Origin: Escherichia coli
GTDB lineage: Bacteria > Pseudomonadota > Gammaproteobacteria > Enterobacterales > Enterobacteriaceae
Length of the DNA: 64,000 nucleotides
Direction: 5' to 3' (one strand)
Assembly (NCBI RefSeq): GCF_003018235.1
Contig: NZ_CP027437.1
The position numbers were made by a program. Below are positions 59,101-62,100 of the stretch, piece by piece (within the stretch, counting starts at the first letter, position 1; the number at the start of each line of letters is the position of its first letter).

Positions 59101-62100
59101 CTTTAATCGCCGTTTGCGCTTTGGAGGTGTCCTGAGTGATGGTTAGCGTCTGGTTGCCCGTGGTGACATCGTTCAGGTTCAGGGTGATGTTTTCCAGCGC
59201 GTCGCTGATGGTGTTGCTGCTGTTCTCAATGGCGACGTTGTTGACCGTCAGCTGCGCATTCTGGGCGGCGACCGAGACCTCCATACCGTTGCTACTGGCA
59301 CTGGCGTCATAGCCCATAAAACTTTGTAGCGCATCATCACCGCTGACCGAGAGTGTCATCGCATTATCAAGGCCGGTGTCATTTGATGTGACTGACAGAC
59401 GATATTCACCGTTACCCACGTTAATGATGCTCGCACTTACGCCCGCTTTTGCGTTGTTGATGGCATCACGGATCCCGCTTAACGACGAGTTAGCCGCGCT
59501 GATATCAATGGTAATCGGATCTTTGTCGCCGCCTTGTTGAATGGTGAGTTTGCTGTCGCTGGTGGCGATCGCCGTTTTCGTATCGTCTCTGGTGGTGCGT
59601 GTGGTCAGGGTTTGCGCCTGCGCCAGATGGGTGACGCTGATGGTGTATTTCCCGGCGATGGCGTTACCCGCGGTGGTGGCACTGAACGCGGTGGTGCTGC
59701 TGGTAGTGCTGGTGGCGGAAAAAAGATCGGCTTTAGACAATGCAGTATTGGCGGTCTGGAAAGTCGTCAGCGCGCTTTTCAGCGTACCGTAGGCGCTAAG
59801 TTTAGCGGTAAACGACGATTGCTGATTTGAAATAGGGGTTAGCGTCGCTTTTTGCGCGGCGGTGAGGCTATCAAGGATTGAACTTAAATCCAGGCCTGAC
59901 CCGACTCCCAGCGATGAAATACTTGCCATGCGATTTCCTTTTATCTTTCGACACGTAAAACGAATACCGGGGTTATCGGCCTGAATTGCGCAAAGTTTAC
60001 GTTTAATTGTTTTTTTTAATAGCGGGAATAAGGGGCAGAGAAAAGAGTATTTCGGCGACTAACAAAAAATGGCTGTTTGTGAAAAAAATTCTAAAGGTTG
60101 TTTTACGACAGACGATAACAGGGTTGACGGCGATTGAGCCGACGGGTGGAAACCCAATACGTAATCAACGACTTGCAATATAGGATAACGAATCATGGCA
60201 CAAGTCATTAATACCAACAGCCTCTCGCTGATCACTCAAAATAATATCAACAAGAACCAGTCTGCGCTGTCGAGTTCTATCGAGCGTCTGTCTTCTGGCT
60301 TGCGTATTAACAGCGCGAAGGATGACGCCGCAGGTCAGGCGATTGCTAACCGTTTTACTTCTAATATTAAAGGCCTGACTCAGGCTGCACGTAACGCCAA
60401 CGACGGTATTTCTGTTGCACAGACCACCGAAGGCGCGCTGTCCGAAATCAACAACAACTTACAGCGTATTCGTGAACTGACGGTTCAGGCGACGACCGGA
60501 ACTAACTCCACCTCTGACCTGGACTCCATTCAGGACGAAATCAAATCCCGTCTTGATGAAATTGACCGCGTATCCGGCCAGACCCAGTTCAACGGCGTGA
60601 ACGTACTGTCAAAAGATGGCTCGATGAAAATTCAGGTCGGCGCGAACGATGGCGAAACGATTACTATTGATCTGAAGAAAATTGACTCTGATACGCTGGG
60701 GCTGAATGGGTTTAATGTGAACGGCAAGGGGGAAACGGCTAATACGGCAGCAACCCTGAAAGATATGTCTGGATTCACAGCTGCGGCGGCACCAGGGGGA
60801 ACTGTTGGTGTAACTCAATATACTGACAAATCGGCTGTAGCAAGTAGCGTAGATATTCTAAATGCTGTTGCTGGCACAGATGGAAATAAAGTTACAACTA
60901 GCGCCGATGTTGGTTTTGGTACACCAGCCGCTGCTGTAACCTATACCTACAATAAAGACACTAATTCATATTCCGCCGCTTCTGATGATATTTCCAGCGC
61001 TAATCTGGCTGCTTTCCTCAATCCTCAGGCCGGAGATACGACTAAAGCTACAGTTACAATTGGTGGCAAAGATCAAGATGTAAACATCGATAAATCCGGT
61101 AATTTAACTGCTGCTGATGATGGCGCAGTACTTTATATGGATGCTACCGGTAACTTAACTAAAAATAATGCTGGTGGTGATACACAAGCTACTTTGGCTA
61201 AACTTGCTACTGCTACTGGTGCTAAAGCCGCGACCATCCAAACTGATAAAGGAACATTCACCAGTGACGGTACAACGTTTGATGGTGCATCAATGTCCAT
61301 TGATGCCAATACATTTGCAAATGCAGTAAAAAATGACACTTATACTGCCACTGTAGGTGCTAAGACTTATAGCGTAACAACAGGTTCTGCTGCTGCAGAC
61401 ACCGCTTATATGAGCAATGGGGTTCTCAGTGATACTCCGCCAACTTACTATGCACAAGCTGATGGAAGTATCACAACTACTGAGGATGCGGCTGCCGGTA
61501 AACTGGTCTACAAAGGTTCCGATGGTAAGTTAACAACGGATACGACTAGCAAAGCAGAATCAACATCAGATCCGCTGGCAGCTCTTGACGACGCTATCAG
61601 CCAGATCGACAAATTCCGCTCCTCCCTCGGTGCCGTTCAAAACCGTCTGGATTCCGCAGTCACCAACCTGAACAACACCACTACCAACCTGTCCGAAGCG
61701 CAGTCCCGTATTCAGGACGCCGACTATGCGACCGAAGTGTCCAATATGTCGAAAGCGCAGATCATCCAGCAGGCAGGCAACTCCGTGCTGGCAAAAGCCA
61801 ACCAGGTACCGCAGCAGGTTCTGTCTCTGCTGCAGGGTTAATCGCCTGAATGCCTCTCAAACCCCGCTCCGGCGGGGTTTTTTACAATTGGCTTTTTGCG
61901 TAACCCCCAAATAACCCCTCATTTCACCCACTAATCGTCCGATTAAAAACCCTGCAGAAACGGATAATCATGCCGATAACTCATATAACGCAGGGCTGTT
62001 TATCGTGAATTCACTCTATACCGCTGAAGGTGTAATGGATAAACACTCGCTGTGGCAGCGTTATGTCCCGCTGGTGCGTCACGAAGCATTGCGCCTGCAG

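Follow-up and report, generated by a model that had tools for sequence, protein, structure and literature searches.

The chromosomal fliC gene described here almost certainly carries the H6 flagellar-antigen allele of Escherichia coli. The gene occupies positions 60195–61841 on the plus strand of a 64,000-nucleotide stretch of E. coli DNA (hereafter the window, to which all coordinates refer), and encodes an intact flagellin of 548 amino acids. An earlier note on this sequence had recognised a non-K-12 H-antigen allele but left its type unassigned: the type can now be given as H6.

The call is based on named H6 strains and is made by genotype. All 1647 of the 1647 nucleotides of fliC are identical to the fliC gene of strain MS6198 and of many other complete genomes, and 148 records among complete E. 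coli genomes match the whole gene at an identity of at least 99%. MS6198 is tabulated as ST648, O1:H6 (PMC8281228). The fliC gene of E2348/69 (O127:H6) has the same length and differs overall by 46 nucleotides and 8 amino acids. In the central region (60700–61560) the two genes are collinear, without indels, and differ at 7 of 861 nucleotides (99.2% identity). The same region is 99.5% identical to that of 'O99:H6 strain CU42ET-1', and the flagellin of DEC2A sits in the same 90%-identity protein cluster as FliC of the window. Identity in the centre to the serologically defined H6 strains E2348/69, CU42ET-1 and MS6198 thus ranges from 99.2% to 100%. In the PDB the protein is matched best, over its full length and with E=0, by 7SQJ and 7SN7, two cryo-EM models of the EPEC O127:H6 filament (PMC8931119).

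The allele is also clearly separated from other H types among the genomes compared. We compared the central 861 nucleotides with 5,426 complete E. coli genomes in a low-stringency search. The distribution of identities is bimodal: 233 genomes match at 90% or more, none at 80–90%, and 219 at ∼66%. The lower group represents H18, because its allele is 100% identical to that of 'O15:H18 strain ST69'. An H18 flagellin was rejected as a candidate, since the centre shares only ∼66% nucleotide identity with H18 strains. The usual threshold of typing tools is at least ∼85% identity across most of the gene. Near-identical pairs of E. coli H types are limited to H1/H12, H30/H32, H5/H56 and H8/H40, none of which involves H6 (Hu & Reeves, PMC7018530). 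The identity to typed strains, together with the wide gap to the next H type, therefore assigns the gene to H6 by genotype, and no other type comes close. Judging from the 98.5% identity of the protein to the solved H6 flagellin, it would be expected to show H6 serological reactivity.

The H6 allele provides one half of the serotype of the strain, and the assignment means that a solved structure, and the motility studies of outer-domain sheaths, bear on this flagellin. The observation that gave rise to the analysis is correct but ordinary, because identical copies of the gene are present in well over a hundred sequenced strains.

The fliC locus and its expression

The fliC gene is a single unbroken open reading frame of 548 codons between fliD and fliA. 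Pfam profiles place Flagellin_N (PF00669) at residues 5–140 (E=2.8e-46), Flagellin_C (PF00700) at residues 462–546 (E=5.4e-32) and the enterobacterial 'FliC' family at residues 337–452. With both terminal helical domains present, the protein is a bacterial flagellin of the FliC/FljB family.

Signals for transcription were read from the sequence on both sides of the gene. A predicted sigma-28 (FliA) class-3 promoter lies at 60092–60118 on the plus strand, 77 nt upstream of the ATG, and consists of TAAAGGTT, an 11-nt spacer and GACGATAA; we matched it to the sigma-28 consensus, TAAAGTTT-N11-GCCGATAA. An intrinsic terminator, a G+C hairpin followed by a T run, lies at 61860–61884 on the plus strand (terminator scan match at 61866–61878, then TTTTTT). 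It begins 19 nt past the stop codon and ends ∼45 nt past it, and its hairpin is kept in K-12, E2348/69 and an H18 strain. The upstream element probably functions as a sigma-28 promoter, from which fliC would be transcribed up to the intrinsic terminator, ∼20–45 nt beyond the stop codon. The gene is probably expressed. The neighbouring genes were identified as open reading frames and from the annotation of matching loci. fliD, encoding the filament cap, is divergent from fliC (58523–59929, minus strand) and has a predicted sigma-28 promoter of its own at 60000–59974 on the minus strand (TAAACTTT, an 11-nt spacer and GCCGATAA). It is followed on the same strand by fliS (58088–58498), encoding the flagellin-specific export chaperone, and fliT (57723–58088), encoding an export chaperone and regulator. 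FliS chaperones the flagellin C-terminus for export. Downstream of fliC lies fliA (62005–62724, plus strand), which encodes the sigma-28 factor driving fliC transcription and is preceded by a further GCCGATAA box at 61972–61979. The gene order amyA-fliT-fliS-fliD / fliC-fliA-fliZ, in which amyA through fliD are minus-strand genes and fliA and fliZ plus-strand genes, is collinear with K-12, MS6198 and E2348/69. This is the standard fliC locus, in reversed orientation relative to K-12.

The strain might nevertheless be H6 by genotype and display another antigen or none, either because it is non-motile (H−) or because its flagellin comes from flkA, fllA, flmA or flnA under a fliC repressor. Nine H types are indeed encoded at such minor loci, but the strains that use them have an inactivated fliC (Hu & Reeves, PMC7018530), whereas fliC of the window is intact and retains its promoter and terminator. 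Our view is limited to 64 kb of the genome, and the flhDC, flg and mot genes lie outside it. Within it, every fli gene is full length, including the fliE–fliR block, fliD/S/T and fliA/Z, and no second flagellin gene is present in the 64-kb window. We therefore regard a different expressed antigen as improbable, and favour H6 as the type both encoded and displayed.

Recombination and the history of the allele

Replacement of the H antigen by recombination at fliC is textbook knowledge, and the window bears a footprint of this kind. Between 56000 and 64000 it aligns to MS6198 without gaps and with 95 mismatches, which are distributed very unevenly: 68 fall in 56000–59705, 27 in 62163–64000, and none in the 2,457 bp in between (59706–62162). 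The identical tract comprises the 5' end of fliD, the intergenic promoters, fliC, its 3'UTR and the 5' end of fliA. Its flanks diverge from MS6198 by 1.5–1.8%. At this divergence a mismatch-free stretch of 2.4 kb is not expected by chance, so that the tract represents a recently shared recombination segment; the divergence of the chromosomal flanks likewise means that the host lineage is different from that of MS6198. The ends of the tract mark sharp recombination boundaries inside fliD and fliA. Homologous recombination of a cassette of ∼2.5 kb, with its ends in these two genes, brought the H6 allele to this chromosome or carried it from here to another.

The amyA side of the locus shows how H alleles are replaced while the backbone stays conserved. 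AmyA is encoded 2.5 kb away, and exactly this protein is very widespread (68,367 index blocks); in other genomes it adjoins fliC genes of 595, 349, 524 and 491 amino acids. H-antigen switching by recombination is a known pattern (PMC7018530).

A smaller-scale mosaic is seen inside fliC. The segment 60470–60664 (fliC nucleotides 276–470), which encodes part of the conserved D1 domain, is ∼13% different from E2348/69, next to an antigenic centre that is 99.2% identical. The conserved 5' part of the gene is thus of different recombinational origin in the two strains, and H6 alleles are therefore themselves mosaics. Such intragenic mosaicism could be taken to suggest a different or novel H type merely resembling H6, for instance an H6/H18 hybrid or an undescribed variant, the more so as H6 and H18 are distantly alignable (∼66% of nucleotides in the centre, 78% of amino acids over the whole protein). 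We consider this very improbable. The diverged segment lies in D1, outside the antigenic region; the centre is collinear with the E2348/69 H6 allele and free of indels; and the exact FliC protein is already public on at least 1000 contigs. The H6 allele and its protein are, in other words, already known.

For the 13.7 kb of core chromosome at 46000–59700, no RefSeq complete E. coli genome among the 5,426 is at least 99% identical, the best reaching 98.7%. Either the host lineage is unrepresented among these genomes or the region is a fine-scale mosaic; the H6 assignment stands in both cases. Positions 1–20653 hold structural genes of a lambdoid prophage (terminase, portal, tape measure, tail tip J and tail fibre). 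Over 94% of a 22-kb query, the prophage shares 99.3% identity with one in E. coli O158:H23 CFIAFB20140388 that occupies the same position next to zinT; other prophages are only ∼90% identical. The O158:H23 genome is collinear with the window, its backbone being only 98–99% identical. The yedK–fliE gap (52453–53298) spans 0.85 kb in the window, with yedL at 52724–53203, whereas in the O158:H23 genome an insert of 4.1 kb at this place carries an ompC-like porin, ybcM, ybcL and emrE. A further stretch of ∼1 kb (29782–30849) does not align to the O158:H23 reference, at a gene annotated there only as 'porin', and is probably another variable spot in a surface protein.

Domain architecture and the variable centre

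Comparison with K-12 delimits three regions of the gene, all on the plus strand. The BLASTN match to K-12 is gap-free up to 60685, ends there and restarts at 61569, and the variable block is therefore 60686–61568. The conserved 5' region (C1, 60195–60685) encodes the N-terminal D0/D1 helices of the filament core. The conserved 3' region (C2, 61569–61841), with 92% nucleotide identity to K-12 and the Pfam Flagellin_C match, encodes the C-terminal D1/D0 helices. Between them, the hypervariable central region encodes the surface-exposed outer domains D2–D4 and sets H6 specificity. The G+C content drops to 42–47% in the centre, against 50–55% at the ends of the gene. In flagellins generally, the conserved termini make up the coiled-coil core (D0/D1) of the filament.

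At the protein level, residues 1–140 are 97% identical and residues 456–548 are 94% identical to FliC of K-12 MG1655, while residues 169–455 are only 22% identical. The earlier note had described a 548-residue flagellin with conserved ends and a centre, placed at 60700–61560 (residues 169–455), that differs from K-12. Both descriptions hold, and the interval agrees with the variable block to within ∼15 nt. Identity to K-12 across the centre, named in advance as the outcome that would speak against a divergent allele, was seen neither by BLASTN nor in the protein comparison. A K-12-type (H48) flagellin is rejected: the centre is only 22% identical in protein to b1923, the proteins measure 548 and 498 amino acids, and 60686–61568 gives no BLASTN alignment. 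The richness of the centre in Thr and Ala, also pointed out in the note, is real as a matter of composition (17.4% Ala and 16.7% Thr, together 34%), but does not distinguish this allele. The K-12 centre is likewise rich in these residues (18.6% Thr, 13.1% Ala, 13.1% Gly), so that the feature is generic to the centres of E. coli flagellins.

Within D1, residues 89–98 (60459–60488, plus strand) presumably correspond to the conserved stretch of enterobacterial flagellins recognised by TLR5. The stretch, located in the FliC sequence, is almost invariant over the aligned alleles, with a single conservative V/I difference, in K-12.

The H6 central region folds as three outer domains, D2–D4, and in the solved EPEC H6 filament D2–D2 and D4–D4 dimers give rise to a tetrameric outer-domain sheath broken by a seam (PMC8931119). 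FliC of the window, identical to the flagellin in 7SQJ and 7SN7 at 540 of 548 residues, would be expected to build the same sheath. Its D0/D1 ends would polymerise as the filament core, and the divergent middle third would be displayed on the surface as domains D2–D4, presumably the part recognised by H6 antiserum. Of the 8 substitutions relative to E2348/69, four fall within D1 and the other four, T228A, G280R, L337V and T361A, within the outer domains. A conserved Asn pair at the D4 dimer interface has been described for H7, H6 and Achromobacter flagellins, and in the related H7 filament motility suffers when the D4 dimer is disrupted (PMC8931119). The motif N-L-T-K-N at residues 320–324 (61152–61166, plus strand) aligns to the corresponding segment of Achromobacter 7SQD and is the probable counterpart of this Asn pair.

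A short hexanucleotide repeat, (GCTACT)2, lies at 61206–61217 on the plus strand, 14 residues past NLTKN, the putative D4 dimer motif, and encodes Ala-Thr-Ala-Thr (residues 338–341). Its length varies among H6 alleles. The window and E2348/69 have two copies, and four other H6 genomes have 3, 4, 5 and 8; the 8-copy allele is scored by TRF as 8.3 perfect copies. Over 60100–62160, three of the repeat-variant genomes show no substitutions relative to the window, and the 8-copy allele shows one. In an evenly spaced sample of central-region matches, three or more copies are present in roughly half of the H6 genomes. The variation looks like a slipped-strand length polymorphism. It is a trait of the H6 allele population, not of the window, and offers a modest lead for work on flagellar variation.

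The 3' untranslated region and the closest known flagellins

The fliC 3'UTR of the window (61842–61905) is short: the terminator ends ∼45 nt past the stop codon, and no REP element is present. The 3'UTRs of K-12, E2348/69 and an H18 strain contain ∼155 extra nucleotides with two REP elements, which are absent from the window. Of the 5,426 complete genomes, 201 have the short form, the O158:H23 strain among them. In K-12 the region is annotated as a 195-nt sRNA, FliX, and the nucleotides that the window lacks account for most of FliX/FliX-S. FliX and its form FliX-S are Hfq-binding sRNAs that act as negative regulators of flagellin and ribosomal-protein mRNAs. The K-12 FliX region and the 3'UTR of the window have only the terminator hairpin in common, and an Rfam scan of 59700–62300 returned sub-threshold terminator-like matches only and no curated RNA family. 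The active form, FliX-S, is ∼100 nt long and includes one REP (PMC10578931).

These features might define a sub-type of the H6 cassette in which a stub of ∼45 nt stands in for the REP-containing 3'UTR of ∼200 nt, with loss of the FliX control arm, and in which the (Ala-Thr)n repeat may tune the sheath or its antigenicity. We hold this reading to be rather unlikely. If the stub makes no functional FliX, its carriers would be without one arm of the sigma-28-dependent post-transcriptional control of flagellar synthesis. Similarly, were the reading true, length changes in (Ala-Thr)n beside the putative D4 dimer site could modulate the packing of the sheath, or the antigenicity of H6 variants. The REP-less 3'UTR is a modest lead for work on sRNA regulation, and belongs to the H6 allele population and not to the window alone.

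Among known flagellins, FliC of K-12 (H48, b1923) shares with the window the locus, the promoter, the terminator hairpin and the D0/D1 ends, but has 498 amino acids and a centre that is unrelated at the DNA level. Among the 5,426 genomes, H18 is the nearest other H type, represented for example by the allele that MS20675 and 'O15:H18 strain ST69' share. It has the same conserved ends, a length of 554 amino acids and 78% amino acid identity overall, and is a distinct antigen. Since the H6 and H18 centres align over 98% of their length at ∼66% nucleotide identity, they are distant relatives and not unalignable forms. The H6 flagellin of E2348/69 (WP_000079695.1; PDB 7SN7, 7SQJ) is encoded at the same locus, has the same 548 amino acids in length, an identical NLTKN motif and an equal number of Ala-Thr repeats (2); it differs from the window in its long fliC 3'UTR with a pair of REP elements. 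The closest of all is fliC of MS6198 (ST648 O1:H6; WP_000079731.1), which, together with the gene of over a hundred complete genomes, is identical to that of the window at every nucleotide.
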